DNA of 64,000 nucleotides from an uncultured Lentisphaerota bacterium. GTDB taxonomy: Bacteria; Verrucomicrobiota; Kiritimatiellia; CAIQIC01. The stretch lies in contig CAITZM010000016.1 of the NCBI GenBank assembly GCA_903896925.1, positions 859 through 64,858 of the forward strand, in the 5' to 3' direction. Made by a program: the position numbers and the translations under genes. The first letter of the stretch is position 1, and every line of letters starts with the position of its first letter. A model generated the notes under the pieces. The model ran no database searches and was not told where the DNA came from. It worked only from the letters and a program-made list of their open reading frames with translations. Shown piece by piece: positions 1-32,202 of the stretch.

Positions 1-2058
1 GCCGTCGGTGATGCGCGTGGCTTCCTGCCAGCCGAGGTAATAGACGCCCCCGAACTTGTCGAAGGTCGGCTTGGAATTGCTGCCCTTGGTGACGAACGGG
101 CGGGACTCGCCCTTGCTCCAGGTCTTGCCGTCCTTGCTGGTGGTGAAGACGTAGTTGCGATCGCCGCTCTCCGTGCGGCAGATCGCCAGCCAGGTACCGT
201 CGGGCAGCCGGTTGACGGCCGACTCGGTGAGGTTGAGGTCGGCCGGTTCGTTGTAGTGGCCGAGGATTTCGAGCGTGTCGCGCTGGTCGTTGAGCACCCC
301 GAGCGCGTTTTGCGCGCCGGGGAAATTATTGATGACCGCATAGGTCTGGCCGTCGAAAACCTTGAACGAGTCAATCAGGTAGAGGCCGTAGCCCTTGGCT
401 TTCTTCTTGAAGCCCTGCTTGACGGCGTCGGAATTAAAATACTTGGGCTGCATGTCGAATGTGCCCGCGGCTGTCTTGAGCTGCATGCGATGGATGTCGG
501 GCTCGAACGTGAGCGACGCGCTGTCGAAGTCGCGATACCACATCTGCGCCTGGCCTCCGCCCTTTCCGTTTTGATCCTCGCACGCAAAGAAGCAGCGCAG
601 CGTGGTCTCGTTGAGCTGGAGGATGCGCGGGACGAAGCAGGCACCGACGGGCAGCGTCACGTTGGCGAACGCCTGCTCGGATTTGGCGAGCAGAAGTCGG
701 CGCTCGACTTGAAGGCTCTTCAGATTCACGACCGACAGCGTGCAGTATTCATCCTTGCCTGCGCCGTGCCCCGGCTTGATGTCGTTGGCAATCGCGACCA
801 CGAAAGCCCGGTCGCCGACGCAGCTCAGATCCGCATCGTGCGCGCCCTTCACCTCCGGCCCGGTGACCTGAAAAATATTCGACAGCACCTTGTCCGCCGC
901 AGCCTTCGGATTCCAGCTGGGCGGGAGCAGTGTTGGCTTGGCGAGCTTGTTGATCACCTGCTTCAGCGTCACCGCACCGGACACGTCTTTGCCTGCCACC
1001 ACGTCTTCCTCGCGGAACTTCGCGAGCAGGATCTCGCCAGCGCCGTTGCGGTCGCGGTCATAGGTGATCCAGATCAGGCCGTCCTTGTCTTGGACGCCGT
1101 CAGGATAGGAAACGCCGCCGCGTTCATCGAGCAACAGCCCGTCGTTCCACGTCGCGCCATCGTCGGTGGAACGTTGCGCGGTGAGGTGGCTGCGGCCCTT
1201 GAACTTGTAATGGTTCACCAACAGCAGATGACCGGAAGCGAGTCGCCGGATGAAAAAGCGGGAGCCGGGGCTCTTGATCGTGCTCGCCGTGCCTTCGCTC
1301 CATGTGTGTCCTTTGTCGGTGGAGTGGCTTTGCCAAAGAACACCGCTGCTCGTGCGGATCAGCATCCAGAGCCGGCCATCTTGGAGTTCGATGATCATGT
1401 TCTCCAGCGCCCAAGGCGGCGCCTTAACCGCGCCGTGGAGTTTCCAGGTCTTACCCTCGTCCGTGGAGATGCCGACGCCGTGGAGCGTCGGTTCCTGGTT
1501 GGTGGTGTAACCGGTGCACCACTCGCGGACGGGCTGCGCGGCATGGGTGACGGGCATGAGCCACTCACCCGTGGAGAGCACCGTGATTTTGTTCATGCGG
1601 AAGGCAAACGGAGCCTCGTAGCCGACGCGAAACTCTCGGCCGAACTTCGGCGGCGTGGCATCGGGATCGTCGCAAATGCGGGCGTGGACACCATGCACGG
1701 CCAAGTCCTTGTTGCCGCGATTAAAAACATACCAGAGCCGACCCTTCGGGTCCCTCCAGAGCGTCGGATCGTAACAGCGGGTGCCATCGGATGTGGGCCG
1801 CCCCATCGCCACCGGCGGGGTGAAAGTGTTTCCACCGTCATCGCTGTAGCAAAGCACCACCGTATTGTCCGGCGCCGGCTCTTTCGGCCCGCCCGTAAAC
1901 CACGACATAAACACGCGGCCTTTGGCAGTGCGTTCGAGTCCGGGAATGCCCTGCCAGGTGCGCTTGGCCAGATCGATGGTGACGCTTTCCGCGGCCTGAA
2001 TCGCGACCAACGAAGCCAACAACAGCGCGGCAAGAGGGATGGACGGGTTGATTTTCAT
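1..2058 (-). CDS. BNR/Asp-box repeat sialidase-like (GH33-like) secreted protein, partial: its 3' end lies beyond the window start
   Basis: My own minus-strand translation from the ATG at 2058..2056 gives MKINPSIPLAALLLASLVAIQAAES..., a Sec signal peptide. It runs 686 codons to position 1 without a stop. Asp-box motifs are present: YSDDGGNTF, STDKGHTWS, STDDGATW and TSKDGKTWS. The protein has two tandem propeller-like halves. It is not in the ORF track because there is no stop in the window. The listed + ORF 256..2193 is its antisense shadow. Confidence 0.75.
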   Translation of the reverse strand, partial: MKINPSIPLAALLLASLVAIQAAESVTIDLAKRTWQGIPGLERTAKGRVFMSWFTGGPKEPAPDNTVVLCYSDDGGNTFTPPVAMGRPTSDGTRCYDPTLWRDPKGRLWYVFNRGNKDLAVHGVHARICDDPDATPPKFGREFRVGYEAPFAFRMNKITVLSTGEWLMPVTHAAQPVREWCTGYTTNQEPTLHGVGISTDEGKTWKLHGAVKAPPWALENMIIELQDGRLWMLIRTSSGVLWQSHSTDKGHTWSEGTASTIKSPGSRFFIRRLASGHLLLVNHYKFKGRSHLTAQRSTDDGATWNDGLLLDERGGVSYPDGVQDKDGLIWITYDRDRNGAGEILLAKFREEDVVAGKDVSGAVTLKQVINKLAKPTLLPPSWNPKAAADKVLSNIFQVTGPEVKGAHDADLSCVGDRAFVVAIANDIKPGHGAGKDEYCTLSVVNLKSLQVERRLLLAKSEQAFANVTLPVGACFVPRILQLNETTLRCFFACEDQNGKGGGQAQMWYRDFDSASLTFEPDIHRMQLKTAAGTFDMQPKYFNSDAVKQGFKKKAKGYGLYLIDSFKVFDGQTYAVINNFPGAQNALGVLNDQRDTLEILGHYNEPADLNLTESAVNRLPDGTWLAICRTESGDRNYVFTTSKDGKTWSKGESRPFVTKGSNSKPTFDKFGGVYYLGWQEATRITDG

Positions 2059-2073
2059 ATTACGGCTCCACAC

Positions 2074-2189: not shown

Positions 2190-3389
2190 CTAGGCCATCC
2201 ATTGCATCGCATTTCCATAACTGATGGCGCGGACCAGCGGTCCGAGGTCCGCCGGCAGTTCGCCGGTTTCCACCTTGTCTCCGAGCCAGTCGCACAGCAC
2301 GCGGCGGAAATATTCGTGACGCACCATCGAGAGGAGGCTGCGCGAGTCGGTGGTCATGCCGATGAAGGTCGCGAGCAGGCCGTAGCTGGCGAGGGCGTCG
2401 AGTTGCTGGCGGATGCCTAGCGCGTGGTCGTTGTACCACCATGCCGGGCCGAACTGAATTTTGCCGCGGACCCCGTCGGCCGCGAACGAGCCGGTCAGCG
2501 TCGCGATGGCGGCGTAGTCGGCCGGGTTGAGCGGATAGAGGATCGTGCGCGGCAGGCAGCCCTCGCGCTCCAGTCCGTCGAGAAACTGGCAGAGCGCGGG
2601 AATATCGCAGGCGTTGCCGATGGTCGCGTAGCCGCCGGCGGGCCCGGCGAGCTGGCGCAGGCGGGTGCTGGTCTCGCGCTGCGCGCCGAAGTGCAGTTGC
2701 AGGATCCAGCCGCGCCGGGCGTACTCACGGGCAAACGCGGTCAACGCTTCCGAGTCGAAAGTGTTGACCGCGTGATCGGCGAGCCGGCAGCCGAGGCGCG
2801 CGAAGGCGTCCAGCCGTGCGGCATCGGGAGCTTCGGCGTCGCGCGGCGAGGGCAGCACGCGCGTCTTGAAATCCGATTGCGCGAGCTTGGCGTGCGCGGC
2901 GAGATCGTCAGTGAGCCGGTCCGATGTGCAGAGCACCTCGACGTTGGCGCGGGCGATGAGCTGGCGCGCCGTGAACGCTTTTGTCCGCAGCTTCTCGTTG
3001 CACTGTTCCCAGATGCACGCGGCCGTCTCCGGCGACAGCAACTCGCCGATATCGAAACAGCGTTTCAATTCCAGCGCCGTCCAGTGGAACAGCGGGTTAC
3101 CGAGGGTCAGCGGCACGGTTGCCGCCCACGCATCGAACTTCTCGCGGTCGGTGGCGTCGCCCGTGATCAGCCGCTCCGGCACGCCGGCGATGCGCATCGC
3201 GCGGTGCTTGTAGGGATCGGTGGCGATCCAGAGCTGCGTGATGTTCGCGAACGCGCGGTCCTCGGCGAGCGCGTGAGGATCGAGATGATTGTGATAGTCC
3301 ACAATCGGGAGCCCCGCGGCGTGCTCGTGATAGAGCCGACGCGCCACCGCGGTCTTCAGCAGGAAGTCGTCGTGGATGAAAGCGGTCAT
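2190..3389 (-). CDS. uxaC: Glucuronate (uronate) isomerase
   Basis: The protein MTAFIHDDFLLKTAVARRLYHEHAAGLPIVDYHNHLDPH...YFRRVLCDWLG aligns along its length with E. coli UxaC (HxH metal motif, DREKFDAWAATVP, RHEYFRR). The track ORF 2190..3647 is 5'-overextended. The start was trimmed to the ATG at 3389, which forms an ATGA overlap with the stop of the upstream GH115 gene. Confidence 0.9.
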   Translation of the reverse strand: MTAFIHDDFLLKTAVARRLYHEHAAGLPIVDYHNHLDPHALAEDRAFANITQLWIATDPYKHRAMRIAGVPERLITGDATDREKFDAWAATVPLTLGNPLFHWTALELKRCFDIGELLSPETAACIWEQCNEKLRTKAFTARQLIARANVEVLCTSDRLTDDLAAHAKLAQSDFKTRVLPSPRDAEAPDAARLDAFARLGCRLADHAVNTFDSEALTAFAREYARRGWILQLHFGAQRETSTRLRQLAGPAGGYATIGNACDIPALCQFLDGLEREGCLPRTILYPLNPADYAAIATLTGSFAADGVRGKIQFGPAWWYNDHALGIRQQLDALASYGLLATFIGMTTDSRSLLSMVRHEYFRRVLCDWLGDKVETGELPADLGPLVRAISYGNAMQWMA

Positions 3390-5569
3390 GGTTTGCTCTC
3401 CCTTTGCGCGGCGTGCGCCTGCGCTTGCCGCGCCTGTTCCAGCACGTCGCGGGTTTTCTTCAGTGTGGTTTCCACATTGAGTTTCTTGCAGCCGCGATAC
3501 CAGTTTTCCCACGGGCTCCGGCAATAGTCTTGGGCGAGCACCGGCAGTTGCGCGAACGCTGCCTCGGCTTTGGCGAGCGCTGCGACGCACGCGCCGGTCT
3601 GGCCCAGCTCGAGCGCTTCGTCCGCCAGCAACACCTGCTCCAGCCACGCGCCGGTCTGGAACATGAGGGCGCTTTGATAGATCAGGTTGTCGCGCAGGAA
3701 AGCCGCCTCGCGTTCCGGCAGCGCTGCCGCCGCCGTGCGCGCGTGCAGCAAGGCCAAGGTGAGTCCGGCCTGTTGCGCCGCCAAAGGCTTGAGCGTTTCG
3801 CGCCGCCCGAGGTTGCGCGGATGCATGTCGTTCAGTCCCACCCAGAACGCGTCGTTGGTTGCGGCGGTTGCGGTCGCCGCCGGGTTATGCGCGGCCTGCC
3901 GATCAGGCTCCGCACTGACGCCACCGGTTTGCTTGCCCAGCAAACGCTGTGCGATCTGCTTCAAGGCGGTATGGCCCGCGCCGAACATCTGCCCATCCAT
4001 CAGAAACGGCACCTGTTGTTCGGGATGGAGCTGCCACGCGTTGAAATAGATTTTATAAGCTCGCGCGATAGGCTCCTGTTGGCTGGAGAAACGCATGCGC
4101 ACCCAGTCCGCGAGCCACGCCTCGGGATCGAACGCGTCCATCCGCCATGTCATCTTCGCCGTCGCATCCACGCCCAGCACGAACTCGCGGAGGTTGGATA
4201 CGTTGCAGATCGCATAGGTCCCGGCGCCCTGTTCCGCGGCAGTCTTCAGGCACGCGAACGTCTTGTGCGGCCCCGGCACCTGCGCCAGGTGCGGGCCGGA
4301 CCCGATCAGCCCGTGGTGATAGTAGACGCCGTAGGTGTTCCCCGGATCGCGCGGCGTCGAGTAGAAATCCTGCTGCCATTTCCAGCCGGGCGAGTTGTCG
4401 GCGAAGACGATGATCGTCCCCGCCGGAATCGTGAGCAGCTTCTGCTGGTTCAGCGCCGAGCCTTCCGCCCAGAGTGTGGTGGAGAGCTGGCGCGGCTGGC
4501 GCGGCGCGACCTCGTCGAGGATCTGCACCTGCGCCGCCATCGCCTCGGAGATGAGCCGGCCGCGGTCGGCGTCGGACTGCGGCGTCTGCGGATCAGCCAT
4601 CCACATCGGCCGGTCGGCGATGCCGCGCAGTCCGAGCTGCCAGATCACGTTCGGATAGGCCGCCCATTTCTTGGCGTAGGCGCGCCACACCTCGCGCACC
4701 TCGGCCGGGTGGCTGAAGTAGGAATACTTCAAATCCCGACCGCGCTGCTTCCAGTAGATAAAGTAACTGAACGCACTCACGCCGAGCGGCTCGACGTGAT
4801 GCTGCGACACGAACACGCCGCGGCGCGCGCATTCCTGCACCAGCGCCTCCTCCGGCGGATTCATGATGTCCACGAAGCTGGCGGGGATGATCAGGTTGCA
4901 GCGGCTACGCACGAGCGCCTCGGCCACGGCGCGCATCACCTCGCGCGGCACCACCTGTTTGTAATATGGATAATCGATGCGCCGCTGCCCGCCGCTTTCC
5001 TGCCACTCGGTCAGCAGATCCTCGTCATTGATGAACCAGCCGCGGAACTTGAAGGAGGGCCCGCCGGACGCAAGTTGGACGCCATCCCACGCCAACGTCG
5101 CGCGCGGCTGCGGCGGACGCGAGGCCCAGAACCAGAGCGGGTCCACGCCGAGATATTTTTCGATGAACGCGTAGAGACCAAACATCGTCCCGTGCTCATC
5201 GCTGCCCGCGATGATCAGCCGGTCGCCGCTGGTCTCGACGCGGTAGGCTTCCCACTTGCCCTTGAGCCCCTCGCCAAAGCCCGGCGCGATTTTCTCCAGC
5301 AGCGCAGCGGACTCCGGCCGGTTCAGCGTGACCACGACAACAGAGCCTGCGCTCTCGCCAGCCAGAAGTGTTTGTCCGGTGATTTTGCTCACATCGCTGA
5401 CGAGATCCGCCGCCGCCAGGCGTACGCACTCCGGCTCGCCCGCCGGCACGCAGAGCTTGGCGGTCCGCTGCGGTGACGCCAGTTCGAACGCGGCGGCGTG
5501 AACCGTCAGCAGCGCGATGCCAACGAAGCGCGCCAGCGTCTTTACGGCAGGCATGGGCTCATGGGTCAT
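3386..5569 (-). CDS. Alpha-glucuronidase-like glycoside hydrolase (GH115-like), secreted
   Basis: 727 aa with a signal peptide (MTHEPMPAVKTLARFVGIALLTVHAAAFE). The N-terminal domain has RLIIAGSDEHGTMFGLYAFIEKYLGVDPLWFW, which resembles the GH20b-like GH115 N-domain. FKFRGWFINDEDLL matches the GH115 catalytic-region signature as I recall it. It sits immediately upstream of, and is translationally coupled to, uxaC. Confidence 0.7.
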   Translation of the reverse strand: MTHEPMPAVKTLARFVGIALLTVHAAAFELASPQRTAKLCVPAGEPECVRLAAADLVSDVSKITGQTLLAGESAGSVVVVTLNRPESAALLEKIAPGFGEGLKGKWEAYRVETSGDRLIIAGSDEHGTMFGLYAFIEKYLGVDPLWFWASRPPQPRATLAWDGVQLASGGPSFKFRGWFINDEDLLTEWQESGGQRRIDYPYYKQVVPREVMRAVAEALVRSRCNLIIPASFVDIMNPPEEALVQECARRGVFVSQHHVEPLGVSAFSYFIYWKQRGRDLKYSYFSHPAEVREVWRAYAKKWAAYPNVIWQLGLRGIADRPMWMADPQTPQSDADRGRLISEAMAAQVQILDEVAPRQPRQLSTTLWAEGSALNQQKLLTIPAGTIIVFADNSPGWKWQQDFYSTPRDPGNTYGVYYHHGLIGSGPHLAQVPGPHKTFACLKTAAEQGAGTYAICNVSNLREFVLGVDATAKMTWRMDAFDPEAWLADWVRMRFSSQQEPIARAYKIYFNAWQLHPEQQVPFLMDGQMFGAGHTALKQIAQRLLGKQTGGVSAEPDRQAAHNPAATATAATNDAFWVGLNDMHPRNLGRRETLKPLAAQQAGLTLALLHARTAAAALPEREAAFLRDNLIYQSALMFQTGAWLEQVLLADEALELGQTGACVAALAKAEAAFAQLPVLAQDYCRSPWENWYRGCKKLNVETTLKKTRDVLEQARQAQAHAAQRESKP

Positions 5570-7218
5570 TGCTTTGTCTTCACCTCGGTAAACGGCAGCT
5601 TCTCCGTGTAGACCTTCAGGTTGCGGAACACCATCGCCGTATGGACCATGCAGCGCAGGGCGATGTGGCCGTAGTTGAGGATGCAGCCGGTGTTGGTCCG
5701 CGAGCTGTCGTCAATCTCCAGCAGCACCTTGCCATCGATCGCGCCGCGGATCTTGCCCTCGTGCTGCACGAGCTGCGCCTTGTGCCACTGGTTGTTGGCG
5801 AACGGCGCCGGCGAGCTGCCGAAGCCGATGCGATAGGCGAACGGATTCTTGCGGCTGAAAGCGGTCCCGACATCGTTCCGCACATCGTTCATCTCGCGAT
5901 AAAATTCCCAATGGTAGTTGCGCACATTCTCGCCGTGCACGGTCTGCATGATGCCCGAGGTCTTCTTGGGATAGTCGGCCATGAAGTCCTCGCGCGACAT
6001 GCCGGAGGCGTGGATCATCAGCAGCGCGAGTCCGTTCGGCTTGAGCGCCTTCCACTCGAACTCCACATAGATGTTCCCCTCGAAGGTCCGGTTGCTCCAT
6101 ATGTACACCTGCTTCGGATAAGCATTCCAGCCGTACGGAATATCCGGCGTCTCGATCAGCAAGCCCTCGGGGTGGCCGGCCGGCTTGATGGCTTCGCGAT
6201 AGCCTTGGATGTAGAACTCCTTGATCTGCTCGACGGGCGTTTTGAAATCCAAATCGAACTGCTTCGTCCAGTTCGCGCCGGGCTGGAACGTAAAGTTTTC
6301 CAGCGCGGCCCCCGCGAAGCGGTTTTTGAGTTCGTCCTCGATGCCCTGGTCGAAATCCGGCGCGCCCGCGCGATACAGTCTGTAGAGTTCCCCGCCGCCG
6401 AGCACGCCCGCGAAAAATTCAATCTGCCCGTGGCAGAGCGCGGGGCAACCGGCATAGAGCACGTCGCCGCAGCGGTCGCGGTGGAAGTCCTTGTTGAACC
6501 GGTCGCTCGTGCCGATGAGGATGCCGTTGACGAACAGCTCCGCGCTCTTCGCAGCGTCGTCCCAGGTGACCGCAAGCTGATACCAGCGGAATTTCTGGAA
6601 GTAGTTAAAGGGCACCGCCTGCACCCACGCCTTCTGCGGCGGGTCGAAGCCCAGACGTGGATAAACCGTCCCCTTGAAAAACTTCGCGCGAAACTCATTG
6701 AAGCGGTTCCACTCGAAGCTGAAGTTCGCCTCGGCGACATCGCGCGGCATGGCGTGATCGCTCAGGAACGCATAGGTCGCGAAAAATTTATTATCGATCG
6801 CCATGTGATCGGCGAGGAAGCTGGCCGCCAGATCTTCCAGCGCGAAGAACCACAGCACCAGCGTGCCGCTGGGCTCGTTGAGCGTGTGCCCGCCCGCCAG
6901 CTTGATGGCCGTGTGAATGCTTGTCGGGTTGATGCCCTTGCGGCCATGCAGTTCGAGCACGCGCGCGGAACCGTTGATGCTCTCGTTCGCCGCGAGCGCG
7001 GCCGCGTCGGCGAGATAACGCTGCCTCGCTTGCGGCGCCGTTCCCGCCGCGCCTCGCGCCGGAGGAAACAACGAGCAGGCCGCGACGGCCGCCGTGGAAG
7101 TCTTGAGGAACTGACGCCGGGTGGTTGCATCAACGGGTTTCATGGCCGGCAGTTTAGCGGAAGCCCCGGCGGCCTCAAGCACTTGGACCTGCTGCGCGGA
7201 TGATGGTGGATTGTTCAT
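5566..7218 (-). CDS. Tat-secreted protein with concanavalin A-like (LamG/glucanase-like) domains; putative polysaccharide-active enzyme of unknown family
   Basis: The track ORF 5566..7692 is overextended. A Tat motif TTRRQFLKTSTAAVAACSLF is present. The start ATG at 7218 (MNNPPSS...) has AGGAG 8 nt upstream; the alternative ATG at 7143 (MKPVDATTRRQFLK) is also possible. WYQLAVTWDDAAKSAELFVNGILIGTSD is LamG/ConA-like. ATGA overlap with the GH115 start. Confidence 0.6.
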   Translation of the reverse strand: MNNPPSSAQQVQVLEAAGASAKLPAMKPVDATTRRQFLKTSTAAVAACSLFPPARGAAGTAPQARQRYLADAAALAANESINGSARVLELHGRKGINPTSIHTAIKLAGGHTLNEPSGTLVLWFFALEDLAASFLADHMAIDNKFFATYAFLSDHAMPRDVAEANFSFEWNRFNEFRAKFFKGTVYPRLGFDPPQKAWVQAVPFNYFQKFRWYQLAVTWDDAAKSAELFVNGILIGTSDRFNKDFHRDRCGDVLYAGCPALCHGQIEFFAGVLGGGELYRLYRAGAPDFDQGIEDELKNRFAGAALENFTFQPGANWTKQFDLDFKTPVEQIKEFYIQGYREAIKPAGHPEGLLIETPDIPYGWNAYPKQVYIWSNRTFEGNIYVEFEWKALKPNGLALLMIHASGMSREDFMADYPKKTSGIMQTVHGENVRNYHWEFYREMNDVRNDVGTAFSRKNPFAYRIGFGSSPAPFANNQWHKAQLVQHEGKIRGAIDGKVLLEIDDSSRTNTGCILNYGHIALRCMVHTAMVFRNLKVYTEKLPFTEVKTKQ

Positions 7219-22385: not shown

Positions 22386-22389
22386 GGCG

Positions 22390-24542: not shown

Positions 24543-24613
24543 GATGGGTTCCTTTCTCATTCACCTCAAGGCGGGGCGGAGTCATTTCCAGAAGTAGAAG
24601 GGGATTTGTTTGT

Positions 24614-26269
24614 TTATGGTTCACGGGCCGCGACTCCAAATTGCATCGGCGGAGCACCGCGCTGGTGCGCTCCGATATCGGGCGCCTTGCCGGAACAACC
24701 GTCGCTAAAGTTGGGAATCAGTTCGCCGGCGCCGGCGCCGGGGCTGGCGGGATCGAGTTGGAAGACGCCGGTCTTCTTGGCTGTATCAAAACCGGCGCCG
24801 GGCGCATAGCGCGGCTCGCCGCGGACGCCATGGGCTTCCGTACCTGCCGGCACGCGCCCGTTGCAGAGGTCGAAGTCGAAATCGTTGTCGGCGTTCTGCT
24901 TGGCCTCGCTGGCGCTGTAACCTTTGTTTTTCTCGTCGCGGATATGCAGGATATTGTTGCGCGAGACGGTGTGCTTGACGATGCGGTTGCCGCCGAGACC
25001 GCCGGTCGGCAGATACTCATCAGACTGGAAGAGCGTGTTGTGGAAGATGTACTGGTGCCCGGTCATCCAGCCATCGTTGCCGGCAAAACCCATTTTCAGA
25101 AAATAGCCCCCGCCCGCGTTGGGCTGCCACTGGCTGCGCGCGACGATGTTGTTCCAGATATAGAGCGGGCCGATGGAGCACGCCGCGTTGCCGATCATCA
25201 TCATGCTTTGCGTGATGTAGTTGCCCCACACGCGCACATTGCGGCTGCCGCCTTCGACCTCGAGGCCGTCGTCCCAGCAGTGGCTGACGAGGTTGCCGTA
25301 GATGTCGGAGTCAGGGCCGGGCGCGCCCTGGAAGCTGCCGTTGCTGCCGCCGCCGATGCCGTCATTGCACATGTGCTCGAGATCGGAAAAACATTCGTTG
25401 AAGCGGATGACGTGGTTGCCGCCGGCGTTGAAGAGGGAGATATACTGCGGGCCCTGGGTGTGCGTTGGATACTTCGGCTCATACCATGTGCTGCCGTCAT
25501 AGGTCGGATGATGCAGCTTACAGCGCTGGACGATCAGCCGGCGCAGCGTTTTGCAGTTCGAGAAAACTGCGGCGTCGTAGTCGAAACCGAAACCCGTCTT
25601 CGGATTGAGCCGGCCCCAGTCGGAGACGTCGCAGTCCTCGATGACGATGTCGTGGCCGCCCTCGATGCGGATGGCGCCGATGATGCCCTTCTTGGTGTTG
25701 CCGGCCGCGCCCGCCCCTTTGAGCGTGAAGCCGCGCAGGATGATGTTCGAGGCGTTGATCGTGATGCACGCGTCGTGCTGGTGGCGCACGTCCAGCGTCG
25801 CGCCACGGCCGTCATAGACCCGCCATGCGTCGGGCGTGCCGGACTCGGTGATCGCCAGCGGCGTGTTGCTGCTTTCCACGCGCACCGCGGGGCCTTCGGG
25901 AAACTTCTCGCTCCATGTCGTCGCCGTCAGGTTGGTGGTCGTGCGCGTGCCGGCCAGTGTCAGCTCGATGTCATAGGTTTTCGCCGGCGCGAGGTGGACG
26001 ATGCTGCCACGATAGTCCGTCAGACATTCGGCGCACTTGGGAATCGGGTTGTAGCGCATCGGCAGGCCGGTCTTCCACTCCGTGGCGCCCGACTGGCGAT
26101 AGCGCACCAGCACGTCCTTGCCGGCCGCGCCGCCCGGCGGCGACCAATAGAGGCCCAGGCAGTGGAAGGTGGGAATCGCCAGCGGCCCGACCTCGGCGCC
26201 GCCCGCAGGCAACAACGCCAGCAGCAGCCCCGCGCAAACCACACTGGTTGTCAGTACAGATGTTTTCAC
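24614..26269 (-). CDS. Right-handed beta-helix (pectate-lyase-like) secreted protein with an N-terminal beta-sandwich
   Basis: 551 aa with signal peptide MKTSVLTTSVVCAGLLLALLPAGGA. Beta-helix rungs: NASNIILRGFTLKGAG, GGHDIVIEDCDVSDWG, NHVIRFNECFSDLEHMCNDGIGGG. Confidence 0.6.
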   Translation of the reverse strand: MKTSVLTTSVVCAGLLLALLPAGGAEVGPLAIPTFHCLGLYWSPPGGAAGKDVLVRYRQSGATEWKTGLPMRYNPIPKCAECLTDYRGSIVHLAPAKTYDIELTLAGTRTTTNLTATTWSEKFPEGPAVRVESSNTPLAITESGTPDAWRVYDGRGATLDVRHQHDACITINASNIILRGFTLKGAGAAGNTKKGIIGAIRIEGGHDIVIEDCDVSDWGRLNPKTGFGFDYDAAVFSNCKTLRRLIVQRCKLHHPTYDGSTWYEPKYPTHTQGPQYISLFNAGGNHVIRFNECFSDLEHMCNDGIGGGSNGSFQGAPGPDSDIYGNLVSHCWDDGLEVEGGSRNVRVWGNYITQSMMMIGNAACSIGPLYIWNNIVARSQWQPNAGGGYFLKMGFAGNDGWMTGHQYIFHNTLFQSDEYLPTGGLGGNRIVKHTVSRNNILHIRDEKNKGYSASEAKQNADNDFDFDLCNGRVPAGTEAHGVRGEPRYAPGAGFDTAKKTGVFQLDPASPGAGAGELIPNFSDGCSGKAPDIGAHQRGAPPMQFGVAAREP

Positions 26270-26279
26270 GGTTGTCGTC

Positions 26280-27251
26280 TCAGTCGACCGGTATCTTCAA
26301 TGCCTGCATGACGCCCTTGGTGTAGCCGATGGCAAAGAGGCGGCCGAGCGAGCCGTAGCCGGGTTGGTCGTTGGTCTCGCCCGCGAGGGTGGGGACGTGG
26401 TCCACGCGGACCGGGCCGGCAAAGCCGAGCTCGTGGTAGAGCTTCAGCAGCGCGGGCATGTCGGTCGGGCCGTCGTCGTGGAACGTTTCCTCGAACCGCT
26501 GCGCCGTGCCGCGCACGTCGCGGAAGTGGACGAAGAAGATCTTCTTCTGCTCCATGAACCGCCGTGCCCATGCGGCCACGTCGCAACCCATCAGCTTGAA
26601 GTTCGCCTGGCAGAACGTGACGCCGTTGTTTGGACTGGACGCGAGCGCCATCGCGCGCTCGAAGTTCTCCGGCCTGGAGAGGATGCGGGCGATGCCGCGC
26701 AGCACCGGCAGCGGCGGATCGTCGGGATGCATGCCCATGCGCACGCCGGCCTGCTCCGCGACCGGCATCACGCGGCGGATGAAGTAGGCGTAATTCTCCC
26801 ACATCTGCTCCTCGCTGACGGCGCCCGCCTCCGTGAGCGAGGCCGGAATATCGGCGGCGTCGAAACGCGACGTGAGCGCGCCGCCGCGGGTGGGCACATC
26901 GCCGTGCGTGCGGTGCCAGCCGATGCCGGCCATGAAGTTGTAGCAGAGCAGGGGAATGCCGAGCGCGCCCATGTTGCGGAGCATCCTGCAATAGAGTTCG
27001 AGGTCGTCATCGCGCCCGTCGAGGCCGAGCTTGATGCGGCGCATGTCGAACTGGTCGCCTTCAAGCCCATAGACCGTCAACCCGGCGTCGGTGAACCGTT
27101 TCTGGATCGTGCGCAGCGCGTCGAGGTCCCACGGCGCTTTCAGCCCCGTCAGCTCCGGTGCGCACTTGCAGATCGCATGGCGCACGCCCATCTGGCGTGC
27201 GTACTGCCACTGAACGTGCGGCGCCGCCGGAAGAAATTCGGCGATGATCAT
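26280..27251 (-). CDS. uxuA: D-mannonate dehydratase
   Basis: It shares with E. coli UxuA the motifs CYNFM, VRMGMHPDDPP (E. coli VRMAVHPDDPP) and GYGSLGRLFAIGYTKGV. 323 aa, a short form. Confidence 0.8.
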   Translation of the reverse strand: MIIAEFLPAAPHVQWQYARQMGVRHAICKCAPELTGLKAPWDLDALRTIQKRFTDAGLTVYGLEGDQFDMRRIKLGLDGRDDDLELYCRMLRNMGALGIPLLCYNFMAGIGWHRTHGDVPTRGGALTSRFDAADIPASLTEAGAVSEEQMWENYAYFIRRVMPVAEQAGVRMGMHPDDPPLPVLRGIARILSRPENFERAMALASSPNNGVTFCQANFKLMGCDVAAWARRFMEQKKIFFVHFRDVRGTAQRFEETFHDDGPTDMPALLKLYHELGFAGPVRVDHVPTLAGETNDQPGYGSLGRLFAIGYTKGVMQALKIPVD

Positions 27252-28102
27252 GGGCGGGGCTCCTCACGGTGTAGTTCGGGCGCAAACAGCGGCACGCCCA
27301 GACCGAGGTCGGGCAGGCTCAACAGCTCGCCGTGCTCGGCCTCGGTCACGACCAGCCCCAGTGGGCCGGCGGGATCAAACGCGCAGTTGGTGGGATTCTT
27401 TCCCGGCAAGTCGCGTGCGCCGACCTGCTGACCCGCGGCGTCGAAAATTTTGATCTGGCCGGAACCGTAGACCGCCACGTAGAGCAGCCCATCGGTGCCG
27501 AGCGCCATGCCATCCGGGCCGGGCGCGCCGGTGACGTCGCCGGCCCAGATGCGCGCGTTGCGCCACTCGCGCCGTTGCGGGTCCCATTCGCCGATCCACA
27601 GCCGCTGCCGGTAGGTTTCGGCGAGGATCAGGGAGTGGCCGCCGTTCACGAAGGCGAGGCCGTTCGGGAAATATTTTTCGCGTGTGATCACACTGACCTC
27701 GCCGGACGGCGCGAGGCAGCAGGCATAGCCGGTCGGCTCCTGGCGCGAATCGCCGGGACAGGAGAACAGCAGATTGCCGGCCGCGTCGAAGGCGAGGTCG
27801 TTGGGCTTGAAGAAGGGGCGTCCCTCCAGCTGTTCCACGATGCTCACGCAGGCACCGGTCTGCGGGTCAAGCCGGCGGATGGAGTTGTGCCCCGAGTCGC
27901 AAAACCAGATGCGGCCTGCCTGGTCGACGGCCGCACCGTTGGGTCCGCCGCCGGTGTCGACGCGCGTCAGCTCGCCCTGCTGCCAGCGCGCCAGGCCGCC
28001 GCCCTTCAGCTCCACGCACCAGAGCGCGCCGTCGGGCGTGAAGACCGGGCCCTCGGGGAACCGCAGGCCGGTGGCGAGCACGTTGACCGGGTTACTGGGC
28101 AC
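27248..28102 (-). CDS. SMP-30/gluconolactonase/LRE-like (SGL) six-bladed propeller lactonase
   Basis: Motifs GLRFPEGPVFTPDG, PNDLAFDAAGNLLFS and GPDGMALGTDGLLYVAVYGSG. The track start 28165 would overlap the MFS gene by 74 nt. I place the start at GTG 28102, which has GGAGGA 8 nt upstream. ATGA overlap with the uxuA start. Confidence 0.65.
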   Translation of the reverse strand: MPSNPVNVLATGLRFPEGPVFTPDGALWCVELKGGGLARWQQGELTRVDTGGGPNGAAVDQAGRIWFCDSGHNSIRRLDPQTGACVSIVEQLEGRPFFKPNDLAFDAAGNLLFSCPGDSRQEPTGYACCLAPSGEVSVITREKYFPNGLAFVNGGHSLILAETYRQRLWIGEWDPQRREWRNARIWAGDVTGAPGPDGMALGTDGLLYVAVYGSGQIKIFDAAGQQVGARDLPGKNPTNCAFDPAGPLGLVVTEAEHGELLSLPDLGLGVPLFAPELHREEPRP

Positions 28103-29327
28103 GGGTGTAGTCCTCCGCAAAGAATTTCTGCCGCGCCAGCAGGATGAGCGCGGCCCCCGCCACATAGAGCACGCCCAGCGAAGAGAGGCCGAGGCTCAGG
28201 CTGACGTGCTTCTTCACCACGCCGAGCAGCAGGGGCGCCAGCGAGCCGATGGTGAAGCCAAAGAAGAGCATCAGGCCCGTCGCCGAGGAGCGGCAGCGCA
28301 GCGGGACCACGTCGAAAAGGGCGGCGAACAGGTTCGAGTCGTAGCACCCGCGGAACAGGCCGAAGGCGGCCAGCGCGGCGTAGACCAGCACCGCGCTGGG
28401 CGCAAAGCCGAGCAGCGCGATGAACGGCGCGCCGAGCAGCAGGCCCAGCGCCTTGATTTCGATGCGGACCGCCGGGCGGCGCGGGGCGAGCCGGTCGGCC
28501 ATGCGGCTGCCGGCCATCACGCCGACGAAGGCGAACAGGTAGTGGCAGATCATCGCGCAGAAGTTCGCCTCCTGCAGCGGCCGGTGGAATTTTTCCACGA
28601 GGAAGGTCGGCATCCACGTCATCCAGCCGGTGTTGACGAACACCATGCAGCCGAACGCGAGGCTCAGGCAGTAGAAGGTCGGCGTGCGCAGCACGATGCC
28701 GAGCACCTCGCGCGGGCGCGGCGTCGGCTCGGTGGCGATGGTCCCGCCGCGGTCGTTTTGCAGCCGCAGGGCGAGCACCACGGCCAGCAGCAGTCCGAGG
28801 AAGCCGAAGGTGTAGAAGGACGCGCGCCAGCCGTAGTGCTCGCCGACGAAGGCGGCGAGCCAGCTGCTCACCACGATGCCGACGTAGAGCGCGGTCTGGT
28901 GGATGCCCAGCGCCTGCGCCCGCGTGGTGGGATGATGGTGGCCGAGCAGCGCGGTGGCCGCGGGGTAATAACAGGCCTCGCCGCCGCCGGTGGTCAGGCT
29001 GCGGAACAGGACCAACCCGACCAGTCCGCCCGCGAGCCCGGTCATGAGCGTGCCCAGGCTGAAGATGAGCAGGCTCAGGACCACGATCCATTTGCGCGAG
29101 AGGAAATCGCCGAGGCAGCCGGCGATCGGCACCAGCAGGCCATAGACCAGCGTGAAGCCCGTCGCCACAAGCCCCAGCTGCACATCGTCCACGTGCAGGT
29201 CGGCCTTGATCAGCGGCAGGACGGCGTTGAAGATCTGGCGGTCGCCCTGGTTCAGGAAATAGGCGAACCAGAACAGGATCACCAGTTCCCACTTATAAAA
29301 TGGACGCGGTGACTTCATGCTTCCCAT
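28092..29327 (-). CDS. MFS transporter (sugar-acid/anion permease-like)
   Basis: 411 aa with 12 hydrophobic segments. The motif FLNQGDRQIFNAVLP is like the ACS/galactonate-transporter family. Confidence 0.75.
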   Translation of the reverse strand: MGSMKSPRPFYKWELVILFWFAYFLNQGDRQIFNAVLPLIKADLHVDDVQLGLVATGFTLVYGLLVPIAGCLGDFLSRKWIVVLSLLIFSLGTLMTGLAGGLVGLVLFRSLTTGGGEACYYPAATALLGHHHPTTRAQALGIHQTALYVGIVVSSWLAAFVGEHYGWRASFYTFGFLGLLLAVVLALRLQNDRGGTIATEPTPRPREVLGIVLRTPTFYCLSLAFGCMVFVNTGWMTWMPTFLVEKFHRPLQEANFCAMICHYLFAFVGVMAGSRMADRLAPRRPAVRIEIKALGLLLGAPFIALLGFAPSAVLVYAALAAFGLFRGCYDSNLFAALFDVVPLRCRSSATGLMLFFGFTIGSLAPLLLGVVKKHVSLSLGLSSLGVLYVAGAALILLARQKFFAEDYTRAQ

Positions 29328-29330: not shown

Positions 29331-30239
29331 TCAGTGCGTGCCCCCGGTGGCTGCGATGAACTCCACGATGGCCCGACGTGCCGGGTCATTTTCCTCTGCG
29401 ATTTTTCCCGCGATGCTGCCGTGCGTCCGGTCGGCGATCAGCCGGCCGGCGACGCGCTGGTTGCCCGCGCCTTGCAGCAGCGCGACGAGAAACGCATTTT
29501 CTTCCGCACGCGCAGGCATGTCGTGGTCTGCATACAGCACGAGCATCGGTGGCGTATCCTTTCGGGCGAAGTACACCGGCGCGGCCTCGTCGGCCGTCAC
29601 GCTGAACTTGTCAATCCCGCGTTCGGCACGCACCGTATAGTGCGTCATCACCTGCCCGCTCACCGGAATCAGCCCCGCGACGGCCGGGAGGGGTATATCG
29701 TATTTCGCCAGATAGCTTGCATCCATTCCAACCATCAGCGCCAGATAGCCGCCGGCCGAGTGGCCGCCGATGAACAGCTTGTTGGCGTCGCCGCCGTGCT
29801 TTGCGATATGCGCGTGCGTCCAGGCCACCGCCGCGGCCGCGTCCTCGATGTACGCGGGGAATTGCACCTTGGGGCTCAAACGGTAATTGGGCACCACCAC
29901 GCACACGCCGGCGCGTGCCAACCTGCGCGCGACGCCTGGCGTGTCCACATCCCGGTCCGCCAGGTCCTTGCTGCCCATCGTCAGCCCGCCGCCGTGGAAC
30001 CACACCAGCGTTGCAAAGCCCGTCGGGCTGTGCGGCAGATAGACATCGAGTACACAGCGCTGTTGCTCGTAGCCCGTGAGCGCGGCACCGGTCTTGTAGG
30101 GGATGTTGCTCAGCTTCTTGCCGCTGTCCGCGGCCGGCGGCGTCGCGCAACCGCTGGCGAGGGCCAGCACGAGTGTGAGGAGCAGACTATGGCCTAGCCG
30201 CACCGCCTTGGTCGATTGTAGCTGCTGCTGTGTGGTCAT
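29331..30239 (-). CDS. Alpha/beta-hydrolase fold-3 esterase lipoprotein (carbohydrate esterase candidate)
   Basis: Trimmed to the ATG at 30239 (MTTQQQ...LLLTLVLALASGCATP, lipobox LASGC). Oxyanion motif VWFHGGGL; nucleophile elbow GGHSAGGY. Confidence 0.7.
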   Translation of the reverse strand: MTTQQQLQSTKAVRLGHSLLLTLVLALASGCATPPAADSGKKLSNIPYKTGAALTGYEQQRCVLDVYLPHSPTGFATLVWFHGGGLTMGSKDLADRDVDTPGVARRLARAGVCVVVPNYRLSPKVQFPAYIEDAAAAVAWTHAHIAKHGGDANKLFIGGHSAGGYLALMVGMDASYLAKYDIPLPAVAGLIPVSGQVMTHYTVRAERGIDKFSVTADEAAPVYFARKDTPPMLVLYADHDMPARAEENAFLVALLQGAGNQRVAGRLIADRTHGSIAGKIAEENDPARRAIVEFIAATGGTH

Positions 30240-30256: not shown

Positions 30257-31447
30257 TCAGGTTCCGCCGACGATGGGGTACCACTCCGGCCGGCGCGGGT
30301 CCTGGTGGAAGCGCGCATAGTAGTCGCCCTTCTCCTCGAAATAGCGCTCGTACTTTTTCATCTTCTCCTCGTCGAGCTTCACTCCCAGGCCCGGCCCCGT
30401 CGGCACCGCGATCTGGCCGTCGACGTACTTCATCAGCCCGCCCTCGATGATGTCGTCGGTCAGGAAGTGATAGTGCGCGTCGCCGGCGAAGTGCATCTCC
30501 GGGATCGTCGCCGAGGTGTGCAACATTGCCGCCAGCTCGATGCCGAACTCCGCACCGCTGTGCATCGCCACGCCGAGGTTGAAGGTGCGGCAGACGGCGA
30601 CGAGATCCTTCACCCCACGCGGGCCTTCCCAGTAGTGCAGGTCGGTCAGCACGATGTCCACCGCGCCCAGGCGGATCGCCGGGCCGAGGTCGTCGAACTT
30701 GTTCGGATACATGTTGGTGGCGATGGGAGTCCGGATCGCCTTGCGCACGGCCGCGTTGCCTTCCAGGCCCCAGGCCGGGTCCTCGAAATACTCCATGTTC
30801 ATCGGCTCCAGCCGGCGGCCGATGCGCGTCGCCGTCGCCACCGACCAGGTCCCGTTCGGATCGATCCGCAGCCCGAACGACGGCCCCAGCCGCGCGCGGC
30901 AGAGCTCGACGACGCGGGCTTCCTCGTCCGGCGGCATGACGCCGGCCTTGAGCTTCATCGCCTTGACGCCGAGCGTCCCGTGCAGCTCCTCGCAGAGGTC
31001 GGCCATATCCTCGGCGCAGGTGTCGTCGCCGCCCTGCGGCCGGTCATAGCGCCAGAAGAGGTAGGCGATCATCGGCACGGCGTCGCGGACGCGGCCGCCG
31101 AGCAGGTCGCTCATCGGCCGGCCCAGCGCCTTGCCCTGGATGTCGAGGCAGGCCATCTCGATGGCCGCGTAGAGGCGCGAGTTCGACAGGTAGTAGATGC
31201 TCCGCAGCACCTTGAGCTTGATGATTTCCAGCTGGAAGGGATCGAGGCCGAGGATGCGCGGCTTCAGCTTCAGGATCGCCCCGCGCTGGTCGCCGCCGCC
31301 GACCTCTCCGAGACCGACAAGGCCCTCGTCGGTGAAAATTTCGATGATTGTGCGCAGGAGGTAGCCGGGATGGACGCCGGTATTATGGCGCAGCTGCGAG
31401 TTGAGCGGGATCGCCACGGTCCGGGCTTTTACGTCGATGATTTTCAT
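30257..31447 (-). CDS. Enolase-superfamily glucarate-dehydratase-like protein
   Basis: The track ORF 30257..32131 has an Arg/Ala-rich spurious N-terminal extension. The real start is the ATG at 31447 (MKIIDVKARTVAIP), 396 aa. Motifs IDPNGTWS, PIATNM and GPGLGV align to E. coli GudD LDPNGAWS, PTATNM and KPGLGV. Confidence 0.7.
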   Translation of the reverse strand: MKIIDVKARTVAIPLNSQLRHNTGVHPGYLLRTIIEIFTDEGLVGLGEVGGGDQRGAILKLKPRILGLDPFQLEIIKLKVLRSIYYLSNSRLYAAIEMACLDIQGKALGRPMSDLLGGRVRDAVPMIAYLFWRYDRPQGGDDTCAEDMADLCEELHGTLGVKAMKLKAGVMPPDEEARVVELCRARLGPSFGLRIDPNGTWSVATATRIGRRLEPMNMEYFEDPAWGLEGNAAVRKAIRTPIATNMYPNKFDDLGPAIRLGAVDIVLTDLHYWEGPRGVKDLVAVCRTFNLGVAMHSGAEFGIELAAMLHTSATIPEMHFAGDAHYHFLTDDIIEGGLMKYVDGQIAVPTGPGLGVKLDEEKMKKYERYFEEKGDYYARFHQDPRRPEWYPIVGGT

Positions 31448-32202
31448 GGTGCCTTGTGTTTCCTTCCTTGATTGAGAACGGCGGCCTGCCCCAGCAACAG
31501 CTGCCGCCAGCCGGCGAGTTGGGCCTTGGTGTGGCCATGGCGCAGGCCCGTCAGCGTCAGTGCGCCTTGAATCTGTCCTTCCATGTCCAGCAGCGGCACG
31601 GAGATGCCGAAGATGTCCGGCCGGTAGGTGGCCGCGTCGGTCGCGACGCCCTGGCGGCGGACCTCGCGGATCCGTTTCCAGACGGCCTCCGGTTTCTGCC
31701 ACTGCCAGCACTCCGGCGGCGCGTCGTGCAGGATCTGTTCGATCCCGGCGTCGGGCAGCCCGCTCAGCAGCACGGCGCCCGAGGCGCCCAGCGTCAGGTG
31801 GAAGCGCGCGCCGGGCTGGACGGCCAGCGCCATCGGTTGTGACGAGGCCACGCGCAGCAGCGTGACCGCCTCGGCGCCGTCCCGGGCCGAGACCTTGCTG
31901 GCCACGCCCGTCGCCGCGGTCAGCGCCTGCAGCGCATCCTGCACCGGCCGGCCCAGGAGCTCGTGGCGCTGCAGCCGCTCCAGCAGCGGCAGCAGGCCCA
32001 GCCCGAGCGCGCATTGCCCGTCCGCGCCCAGCTGCACCCAGCCGGCGTGCGCCAGGGTCTGGAGGATGCGGTAGCAGGTCGCCGGCGCGATGGACAGGGT
32101 GCGGGCCAGGACGGCTGCGGTCGGCTCGCACCGCCCGCCCGCGACGGCCTCGAGGACCTGGACGGCCTTCCGCAGCACGGGGATCTGGTTCGTCGGCTTC
32201 AT
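31444..32202 (-). CDS. IclR-family transcriptional regulator (KdgR-like), first gene of the minus-strand array
   Basis: 252 aa with an N-terminal wHTH (VLRKAVQVLEAVAG...LARTLSIAPATCYRILQTL) and a C-terminal effector domain. ATGA overlap with the start of the dehydratase-like gene. Confidence 0.8.
   Translation of the reverse strand: MKPTNQIPVLRKAVQVLEAVAGGRCEPTAAVLARTLSIAPATCYRILQTLAHAGWVQLGADGQCALGLGLLPLLERLQRHELLGRPVQDALQALTAATGVASKVSARDGAEAVTLLRVASSQPMALAVQPGARFHLTLGASGAVLLSGLPDAGIEQILHDAPPECWQWQKPEAVWKRIREVRRQGVATDAATYRPDIFGISVPLLDMEGQIQGALTLTGLRHGHTKAQLAGWRQLLLGQAAVLNQGRKHKAP

Follow-up and report, generated by a model that had tools for sequence, protein, structure and literature searches.

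Large co-oriented arrays of carbohydrate-utilization genes are ordinary in Verrucomicrobiota and Planctomycetota. Among described systems for the catabolism of uronates and other sugar acids, those closest to the array examined here are the Ashwell hexuronate isomerase loci that occur with xylan genes in Proteobacteria and Bacteroidota, the gud/gar genes of Escherichia coli (GudP/GarP, GudD/GarD, GarL, GarR and GarK), and the XylB-XylC-XylD-XylX-XylA set of the Weimberg/Dahms pathways in Caulobacter. A dehydrogenase, an SMP30 lactonase, an enolase-type dehydratase and an aldolase represent a general pathway logic, known examples being a xylonolactonase of the SMP30 type and aldopentonate dehydratases of the enolase type (PMC9795676), and in the Pseudomonas oxidative uronate route a lactonase is found next to uronate dehydrogenase (PMC9007349). 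Our subject is a 32-kb gene array at positions 1-32202 of a 64-kb stretch of DNA (the window) from contig CAITZM010000016.1 of an uncultured Lentisphaerota bacterium. We consider it probable that this array is a co-oriented polysaccharide and sugar-acid utilization locus assembled from three separable modules; judging from the encoded proteins, its seemingly oxidative part does not correspond to a glucarate pathway of the classical kind. Loci of this type are known, and what is new is the combination of genes, a conserved cassette around an orphan enolase, and two families of secreted proteins covered by no family model.

Layout and mosaic composition of the array

The array consists of 23 consecutive, tightly packed genes, all on the minus strand, as seen from the open reading frame (ORF) listing and from codon-position GC content. 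GC at third codon positions (GC3) ranges from 0.56 to 0.92 and is above that at first and second positions (GC1 and GC2) in each of the 23 genes. Were gene orientations independent, such a run would arise with a chance of about 2^-22; elsewhere in the window genes lie on both strands, and the next gene, uvrA (33139-36000), is on the plus strand. Families were assigned by Pfam and NCBIfam scans of the window ORFs, with matches judged against curated cut-offs. Read from 32202 toward 1, the order is an IclR-family regulator, an enolase-superfamily protein, a BD-FAE esterase, a major facilitator superfamily transporter (MFS2), an SGL lactonase, a UxuA-family dehydratase, BH551, a short-chain dehydrogenase/reductase (SDR2) and a family 10 glycoside hydrolase (GH10), followed by A2, B2, an LVIVD-repeat protein, U561, A1, B1, a second transporter (MFS1), a UxuB-type SDR, two clan-A GHs, a ConA-like protein exported by twin-arginine translocation (Tat), GH115, UxaC and, at the position 1 end, a BNR_2 protein. 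A run of minus-strand genes in this order was proposed in an earlier reading of the same letters (the original prediction), and the ORF listing, Pfam and NCBIfam bear it out.

After start-codon refinement, six junctions show ATGA-type overlaps of 4 nt, among them IclR/enolase, SGL/UxuA, A2/B2, ConA/GH115, GH115/UxaC and that between the tandem clan-A genes (GH39b/GH39a). The remaining gaps are mostly 53 nt or shorter, and only four exceed 60 nt (333, 131, 118 and 90 nt), the longest lying upstream of MFS1 (11139..12437). The array is probably co-transcribed for the most part. Rfam and tRNA scans of the window detected nothing.

Three modules make up the array: left (1-12.4 kb), middle (12.8-22.4 kb) and right (22.4-32.2 kb). 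Composition sets part of the middle module apart. Outside the five consecutive genes B1, A1, U561, LVIVD and B2 (12771..21087), GC3 is 0.79-0.92; within this block it is 0.76 for A1, 0.71 for B1, 0.67 for U561 and B2, and 0.555 for LVIVD, the array minimum. Low GC3 in the stretch from B1 to B2 is consistent with later acquisition and suggests that the block was gained horizontally. Its halves recur apart, B2-LVIVD in one related contig (L032) and B1-U561 in another (L004).

L032, from a metagenome-assembled genome labeled Lentisphaerae, is the closest syntenic contig. At 74-93% identity it holds BH551 (85%), SDR2, GH10, A2 (87%), an extra A1-type gene, B2 (92%), LVIVD (93%), an A2-like fusion, MFS1 (93%) and the ConA-like gene (90%); U561, B1, the UxuB-type SDR and both GH39-like genes are absent. 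Upstream of BH551, ceramidase-like and DUF6259 genes stand in place of the UxuA, SGL, MFS2, esterase, enolase and IclR genes. Because L032 keeps the core of carbohydrate-active enzymes (CAZymes) without the IclR/enolase/SGL/UxuA part, the array is a mosaic rather than one conserved unit. Other combinations point the same way. In L004-L006, MFS2-, SDR2- and A2-type genes are followed, a few genes on, by B1-U561 and an RraA-like gene; in L004 the A2 homolog (78% identical) comes after the MFS2-type and SDR2-type genes, and the U561 homolog (85%) adjoins a B1-type gene. A BNR_2 homolog (72%) adjoins an A-type gene in L022. By the gene content of these contigs, the 32-kb array is thus an assembly specific to its lineage, put together from modules that also occur on their own.

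In the A2-like fusion in L032 (14677-18471), a domain 74% identical to A2 appears to be part of a 1264-aa ORF that also contains a weak GH42-like (clan-A) region. Either A has been joined here to a GH39/42-like domain, or the ORF could be an artifact of read-through.

The orphan enolase and its cassette

The enolase-superfamily protein (30257..31447, minus strand, 396 aa; Pfam MR_MLE_C and MR_MLE_N) is a putative acid-sugar dehydratase. It carries K165-L-K167, D196, E222, N245 (in ATNM), D269 (in DLHYW) and H296 (in MHS), and we take this KxK motif, Asp/Glu/Asn metal ligand set and Asp-His dyad to be the GlucD-subgroup catalytic set, presumably mapping to E. coli GlucD numbering. The presence of this set makes acid-sugar dehydratase activity likely. 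The original prediction called the protein glucarate-dehydratase-like, and that description holds at the level of the subgroup only; identity as GudD is rejected, since the best NCBIfam match, the glucarate dehydratase equivalog TIGR03247, scores 149 bits against a cut-off of 828.7, and the protein is 396 aa long versus about 446 aa. The nearest structures in the PDB (4it1, 3vc5, 3vdg, 3va8, 2oqh and 4dye; 232-248 bits) are unassigned structural-genomics targets of the Enzyme Function Initiative (EFI), and true GlucD structures score only about 115-131 bits.

Conservation of this protein is unusual. Each of its best 120 homologs shares at least 80% identity with it, almost every one is exactly 396 aa long, and the sources are Verrucomicrobiota, Planctomycetota, Bacteroidota (Larkinella, Parapedobacter, Algoriphagus), Sphingomonas and Geochorda. 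While the enolase keeps at least 80% identity over at least four phyla, the SDR, GH10, MFS and SGL proteins that accompany it are only 36-57% identical. An RraA-like partner, at about 70%, is also unusually conserved.

To define the enolase neighborhood we compared 84 loci (4 in named genomes and 80 metagenomic) by tblastn with the window proteins, within 10 kb. All four named-genome loci have IclR, SDR and RraA-like (PF03737) neighbors; the Larkinella and Sphingomonas cassettes add GH10, and that of Larkinella an MFS transporter as well, whereas Coraliomargarita and Geochorda have minimal cassettes without any glycosidase. In Bacteroidota the cassette is located in SusC/D loci (for example, L088). 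Across the whole set, an SDR2-type gene is near the enolase in 53 of the 84 loci, an RraA-like gene in 37, IclR in 28 (25 + 14 by clustering), GH10-type (about 44% identical) in 27, MFS2-type in 19, SGL-type (50-57% identical) and GH2 in seven each, a LamG-like gene in six and BD-FAE in three. De novo clustering of all enolase neighbors gave counts that agree with tblastn, and GarR, GarK, KdgD, KGSADH and aldehyde dehydrogenase were absent from the clustered neighbors of the 84 loci. Typically the genes run GH10-enolase-SDR-(GH2)-MFS-(LamG)-(SGL)-RraA, and IclR is close by. Enolase, SDR, RraA-like protein and IclR, often joined by GH10, form the core of the cassette, and SGL is optional.

UxaC, UxuA, GH115, A, B, U561 and LVIVD were each found in none of the 84 loci. 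The absence of UxaC, UxuA and GH115 implies that their juxtaposition with the enolase in this array is lineage specific, and it upholds the earlier impression that the combination is unusual. Our searches of the literature (on the orphan PDB codes, on RraA with enolase and GH10, on RraA with xylonate and on 4-O-methylglucuronate catabolism) found no published description of the cassette. One candidate match, PMC8857213, was rejected, as "GH10" there is GH106 and GH108.

Cassette members in the window are IclR, enolase, BD-FAE, MFS2, SGL, SDR2 and GH10, all on the minus strand, with the short UxuA and BH551 genes inserted among them. The GH10 xylanase-like protein (22390..23772) has a signal peptide, and its family membership is supported by a Pfam score of 102 bits against 22.1 and a best PDB match to the beta-1,4-xylanase AcXyn10A (8b73, 129 bits), to which both catalytic Glu motifs, WEVVNEP and HITEI, align. 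SDR2 (23772..24560; Pfam adh_short) is a classical SDR whose best NCBIfam matches, all below cut-offs, are glucose 1-dehydrogenase, Lra1 (L-rhamnose 1-dehydrogenase) and KduD; Epimerase PF01370 matches at E = 0.0045 only, and the nearest PDB entry, 4imr, has no assigned function and is thus uninformative. The SGL/SMP-30-type lactonase (27248..28165; Pfam SGL E = 1.5e-36; start codon uncertain) is probably cytoplasmic, and its nearest PDB enzymes are the gluconolactonase 8djf and the beta-propeller lactonase 7ris. MFS2 (28092..29327; Pfam MFS_1) resembles anion:cation symporters, with TIGR00893 (galactonate transporter family) and TIGR00895 below cut-offs. The BD-FAE/Abhydrolase_3 esterase (29331..30239; Pfam BD-FAE E = 9.3e-25), whose gene adjoins the enolase in three close relatives, has the lipobox LASGC and so would be an exported lipoprotein rather than a cytoplasmic enzyme. 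BH551 (24614..26269) is a secreted protein that only weakly resembles right-handed beta-helices (Pfam Beta_helix at E = 0.0087, short of the cut-off).

At the head of the array, the IclR-family regulator (31444..32202, minus strand; Pfam HTH_IclR and IclR_C) has a stop codon that overlaps the enolase ATG (ATGA), and IclR adjoins the enolase in one third to one half of related loci. Directly upstream of its ATG, in a genome of about 65% GC, is an AT-rich stretch (32203..32262, minus strand) that contains a TTGACA box and two copies of the direct repeat TATTGAAAT separated by 11 nt, which we regard as a candidate promoter/operator. Control of the right-hand cassette by IclR is a reasonable inference from this arrangement. 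The broader claim that the array is under an IclR regulator is plausible for this cassette, given the coupling to the enolase and the presence of IclR in 28-39 of the 84 loci, and is unsupported for all 32 kb. The 936-nt intergenic region between IclR and uvrA also contains a very basic 48-aa ORF (MAMGQQLRVRVKRAARIRRIKRLKTAANKAKPAAKPAAAAAPAAAPKA; 32801-32947, minus strand) and, beyond it, an inverted repeat (32721-32767; 17-nt arms, 88% complementary, 13-nt loop) that is a possible terminator.

Comparison with described sugar-acid systems brings out what is distinctive. The right module and its relatives share with E. coli gud/gar a transporter-dehydratase-aldolase-reductase logic, but the dehydratase scores well short of the GudD equivalog threshold and has some 50 aa fewer, and the cassette aldolase, which is not in this window, is RraA-like rather than HpcH-type as GarL is. 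The dehydrogenase is a classical SDR and not GarR-type, there is no glycerate kinase, and GH10 and IclR are linked. With the Caulobacter set the array has in common an SDR, an SMP-30-type lactonase and a putative sugar-acid dehydratase placed together near xylan-degrading enzymes. It differs in that the dehydratase belongs to the enolase-type GlucD subgroup and not to IlvD/EDD, a KdxD/FAH-type second dehydratase and KGSADH are absent, the transporter is an anion symporter and the lactonase is optional.

A candidate glucuronate module, secreted families and neighboring features

The left module is a credible candidate for glucuronate release, import and isomerization, based on the families it encodes, all on the minus strand. 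UxaC (2190..3389) is a predicted glucuronate isomerase (Pfam UxaC E = 1.2e-140; equivalog NF002794, 417.6 bits against a cut-off of 387). GH115 (3386..5569), with a signal peptide, falls in the alpha-glucuronidase family (Pfam Glyco_hydro_115 E = 7e-51, 174.1 bits against 27), and identical metagenome contigs carry the same gene call. The SDR at 10284..11135 is assigned to SDR-type D-mannonate oxidoreductases, the UxuB function (PRK08277, 338.2 bits against 281), and MFS1 is of the anion:cation symporter (ACS) type, similar to ExuT and galactonate transporters (Pfam MFS_1; TIGR00893 239.6 bits, below cut-off). Between these lie a tandem pair of GH39-like clan-A paralogs that are 43% identical: copy a (7337..8770) scores 36.6 bits against the Pfam GH39 cut-off of 26, and copy b (8767..10233) has a weak Pfam GH42 match, its nearest PDB entries being PslG (GH39) and a GH39 beta-xylosidase (E = 7e-5 to 4e-3). 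PslG, a GH39 exopolysaccharide hydrolase of Pseudomonas, is the nearest solved structure to the pair. The Tat-exported protein (5566..7218; Pfam ConA-like/DUF1961 at 4.4e-18, 3keto-disac_hyd, Laminin_G_3 and TAT_signal) resembles 3-keto-disaccharide hydrolases and is a 550-aa gene in an independent call. The BNR_2 sialidase-like beta-propeller (1..2058; E = 5.8e-32), whose 3' end is off the window, has a signal peptide (N-terminus MKINPSIPLAALLLASLVAIQA).

A third isomerase-route enzyme, the UxuA-family dehydratase, sits in the right module (26280..27251, minus strand; Pfam UxuA E = 4.9e-72). At 323 aa it is short compared with about 360-394 aa for UxuA, and it narrowly passes the subfamily model PRK03906 (199.5 bits against 191) and falls below the equivalog TIGR00695 (138 bits against 199.55). 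KdgK and KdgA (PfkB-type and KDPG-aldolase-type) were absent from the ORFs scanned across the 64-kb window, though they could be elsewhere in the genome. The UxaC-UxuB-UxuA route named in the original prediction thus stands for UxaC and the UxuB-type SDR, and for UxuA at the subfamily level only, with no KdgK or KdgA in the window. Hexuronate import finds its counterpart in the ExuT-like MFS transporter, and the proposed removal of xylan backbone and side chains accords with GH10 and its two Glu motifs, GH115 and the BD-FAE lipoprotein esterase. Ashwell loci share with the array UxaC, a UxuB-function SDR, a UxuA-family protein, an ExuT-like MFS, GH115 and GH10. Unlike them, it comes without KdgK or KdgA in the window, lacks GH67, GH43 and GH3 as well as any TonB-dependent or SusC/D transporter, has a short UxuA that passes the subfamily model only, and is interleaved with families without assigned function and with the enolase cassette. 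A SusC/SusD pair, the mark of Bacteroidota-type polysaccharide utilization loci, was not found in the window.

The middle module, also entirely on the minus strand, contains B1 (12771..14270), A1 (14306..15604), U561 (15695..17371), LVIVD (17374..19563), B2 (19597..21087) and A2 (21084..22412). A1 and A2 are 40% identical (E = 2e-89), as are B1 and B2 (E = 2e-102). Pfam, even at E ≤ 10, and NCBIfam gave no match to any of these four, and neither A, B nor U561 matched PDB sequences in single-sequence searches or, for A and B, with family profiles (A at E ≤ 5). AlphaFold2 (AF2) models of these secreted proteins give A1 an (alpha/alpha)6 toroid (mean predicted local distance difference test score, pLDDT, 88.0) and B1 a (beta/alpha)8 (TIM) barrel with a C-terminal beta-sandwich (pLDDT 90.6), the latter a candidate GH. 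Foldseek places A1 remotely near GH76, AGE/cellobiose-2-epimerase and GH88 (E ≥ 4e-4, template modeling (TM) scores 0.39-0.45), and B1 near GH31, GH66, GH36 and the GH168 endo-fucanase 9F9V (TM 0.3-0.49). D174, D210 and E309 are invariant in the B family. Together these features suggest, as far as models allow, that A and B are glycan-active catalytic domains. B shares with the TIM barrels of the GH-D clan, GH66 and GH168 the barrel and C-terminal beta-sandwich, secretion and, in its own family, invariant acidic residues; A shares with GH76, GH88/GH105 and AGE-type epimerases the overall (alpha/alpha)6 fold and secretion. Both differ from these families in having no sequence relation even by profile, Foldseek TM scores of 0.3-0.5, and no Pfam or NCBIfam model. 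We rejected B as a relative of the GH168 endo-fucanase (9f9v; TM ≤ 0.49 and no sequence signal), a relationship of B to a neighboring DUF4832 protein (hhalign probability 0.5%) and one of A to a neighboring AGE-family protein (0.1%).

Both families extend well beyond this array. More than 760 A homologs, all hypothetical, come mainly from Verrucomicrobiota and in some cases from Planctomycetota, and an identical copy of A1 is present on environmental metagenome contigs. Together with the label of L032, this distribution points to a member of the PVC superphylum, most likely of Verrucomicrobiota, as the source of the array. An exhaustive profile search for B yielded 387 representative clusters at 50% identity. 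In many B members, which are large and secreted, the B domain is joined to Laminin_G_3, Ig-like (Big_7), Glucodextran_B, PG_binding_1 or M14 peptidase domains; some of the PG_binding_1 or Peptidase_M14 fusions are in the representatives P0298, P0351, P0323 and P0344. These are hints that part of the B family may act on the bacterial cell wall rather than on plant glycans. Elsewhere, B-type genes occur in the company of a GH5 mannosidase, a pyruvyl-transferase-family protein, DUF4832 and a GH123-like protein.

LVIVD is an LVIVD-repeat beta-propeller (Pfam E = 1.1e-29). U561 is a secreted protein of 558 aa with no Pfam match at E ≤ 0.01 and a GH28 hint at E = 0.097. Two beta-helix genes had been proposed at the positions of BH551 and U561; the first keeps its weak, sub-threshold signal and the second only the GH28 hint. 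A paralogous relationship between U561 and BH551 was rejected, as the two proved unrelated on comparison.

Beyond the array, the part of the window with the highest GC (0.70-0.735) encodes a TPR-repeat ORF (about 1029 aa) and, after it, homologs of MotA/ExbB and ExbD (35445-39656, plus strand). Also present are a B12-binding radical SAM protein with DUF4070 (44023-45501, minus), a weak GH43-like protein (45905-46879, minus) and a 786-aa GHL10-domain protein (55765-58125, minus). A neutral-ceramidase-N-like protein (47703-49010, plus) has a 28% identical relative at 983-2422 of L032, directly upstream of the array there, and some of the enolase loci (L101, L104) contain weak relatives. From 61124 to 64000 the sequence is compositionally odd, with GC skew and AT skew climbing sharply (AT skew 0.435 at 62-64 kb), long overlapping ORFs on both strands and a GYF_2-domain ORF running off the window end.

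Competing explanations and the possible fate of released sugar acids

In the model that we favor, the exported GH115, two GH39-like, ConA-like and BNR proteins would detach and trim a glucuronate-bearing glycan, with the exported A1/A2, B1/B2, U561 and LVIVD proteins of the middle module as additional glycan-cleaving enzymes, as their architecture suggests. The ExuT-like MFS would import uronate, the isomerase route would begin with UxaC and the UxuB-type SDR, and its third step would probably fall to the short UxuA-family protein. The GH10 xylanase-like enzyme and the lipoprotein esterase would work outside the cytoplasm and MFS2 would take up a sugar acid or its precursor. SDR2 and, where present, the SMP-30-type lactonase may make or process the sugar acid, the enolase would dehydrate it to a 2-keto-3-deoxy acid, and in other genomes the RraA-like protein of the class II aldolase family would cleave this to pyruvate and an aldehyde. 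IclR, translationally coupled to the enolase, would regulate the cassette. We infer, then, that the right module is a dehydratase/aldolase cassette for sugar acids, supplied by the breakdown of hemicellulose-type glycans and under IclR control.

Whether the substrate of that cassette derives from a uronate or from an aldose is, in our estimate, about evenly balanced. It is possible, if doubtful, that the whole array is one glucuronoxylan regulon in which isomerase and oxidative routes run in parallel under IclR; the SDR would then act as uronate dehydrogenase, SGL would be the glucarolactonase and the enolase a glucarate-type dehydratase. The known substrates of RraA-like aldolases, 4-hydroxy-2-oxo-dicarboxylates, would fit, as would the full GlucD motif set with its Asn metal ligand and an MFS2 type that includes glucarate, galactonate and hexuronate carriers. 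GH115 and GH10 would supply (methyl)glucuronate, and the pairing of SGL and enolase is real in the window, reminiscent of the lactonase beside uronate dehydrogenase in Pseudomonas (PMC9007349). Yet of the oxidative uronate route to which the original prediction likened the locus, only the lactonase is clearly present; KdgD, KGSADH and GarL/R/K proteins, or a clear Udh-type dehydrogenase, were found neither in window scans nor in the 84 loci. The enolase is also too short and scores too low for GudD, SGL accompanies it in few loci, UxaC, UxuA and GH115 in none of the others examined, and L032 has the CAZyme core without the cassette. Somewhat unlikely, too, is a Dahms-type non-phosphorylative pathway for a neutral aldose freed by GH10, most simply xylose, with SDR2 as aldose 1-dehydrogenase, SGL as pentonolactonase, the enolase as aldonate dehydratase and the RraA-like protein of other genomes as 2-keto-3-deoxy-aldonate aldolase. 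The enzyme families follow the order of the Weimberg/Dahms upper pathway (PMC9795676), of which the dehydrogenase, SMP30 lactonase and sugar-acid dehydratase families are present, the aldolase being absent from the window and represented by RraA-like genes in the loci noted above. The strong tie of the cassette to GH10 and the sub-threshold matches of SDR2 to glucose and L-rhamnose 1-dehydrogenases argue in the same direction. Set against this are an MFS2 that is like organic-anion symporters and not sugar porters, the lack of a lactonase in most cassettes, the grouping of the enolase with the diacid-specific GlucD subgroup and not with known aldonate dehydratases, and the glycosidase-free cassettes of Coraliomargarita and Geochorda.

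The target glycan and the unity of the array can be questioned as well. We entertain only tentatively that GH10, GH115 and the GH39-like pair have been co-opted for another glucuronate-containing glycan (a microbial exopolysaccharide, arabinogalactan or gum) in place of plant xylan, with A, B, U561, LVIVD and BNR supplying specific linkage cleavages. About one third of the array encodes exported proteins without assigned function, PslG is nearest to the GH39-like pair, the B-type neighbors and peptidoglycan-linked fusions described above are consistent with such targets, and the usual accessory enzymes for xylan (GH43, GH3, GH67, xylose isomerase and kinase) were not found in the array by Pfam scans. 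However, an intact GH10 nearest to a true beta-1,4-xylanase forms with GH115 and BD-FAE the classic glucuronoxylan trio. That the modules are independent operons lying head to tail, adjacent without shared function, we judge distinctly unlikely. Their separate recurrence in other genomes, the sharp GC shifts at the middle-module borders and the 333-nt gap before MFS1 would favor it, but across module borders the genes are closely spaced or overlapping (GH10 and A2 share 23 nt; B1 and A1 lie 35 nt apart), and each module has a carbohydrate theme. The position of BH551 and UxuA between the enolase and SDR2/GH10 shows, moreover, that modules are interleaved and not merely adjacent.

Several observations weigh against our favored model of a single utilization locus built of three modules. 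Promoter consensus scans of the array returned 5 and 10 sites and terminator scans 21 and 21, without clear excess over shuffles, so transcription units cannot be defined from them, and the four longest gaps could hold internal promoters. An RraA-like gene was not found in the window by tblastn; with KdgK and KdgA absent from it as well, neither route is complete locally. SDR2 could serve as a 1-dehydrogenase, as an aldehyde reductase or as a dehydrogenase of keto-deoxy acids, and for the roles of A, B, U561 and LVIVD the evidence is modeled fold resemblance at TM 0.3-0.5. Finally, 80 loci anchored on A1-type genes have almost nothing else in common with the window. The commonest A-type neighbor is an esterase-like protein (20 of 79 loci), with no tightly conserved partner, which makes the functional link of these genes to the array weak.

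A bolder proposal, which we rate as improbable, combines the founding of new GH or lyase families by A and B with a previously undescribed pathway, suggested by chemistry and gene context, in which the enolase cassette handles 4-O-methyl-glucuronate derived from xylan. To our knowledge, the bacterial fate of this sugar acid is poorly documented. The isomerase route would stall on it, since its last reaction, a retro-aldol cleavage, requires a free 4-OH. Were it instead oxidized to 4-O-methyl-glucarate, a GlucD-type beta-elimination at C4 would expel methanol to give the ordinary 5-keto-4-deoxy-glucarate, which an RraA-like aldolase could go on to cleave. If true, this would explain why an orphan GlucD-like enzyme of extreme conservation travels with a GH10 xylanase across phyla, why in this array it neighbors a seemingly complete module for glucuronate isomerization, and how both "routes" come to be present together.

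Our findings bear on families well beyond this bacterium. The label "glucarate dehydratase," which several sources use for the enolase clade, is unsupported; as the closest structures have no assigned function, a widespread sugar-acid pathway linked to hemicellulose appears to be uncharacterized. With glycosidase-like folds, no Pfam model and no solved relative, A and B are candidate new CAZyme families. The array, finally, offers a testable hypothesis on the fate of 4-O-methyl-glucuronate in bacteria.

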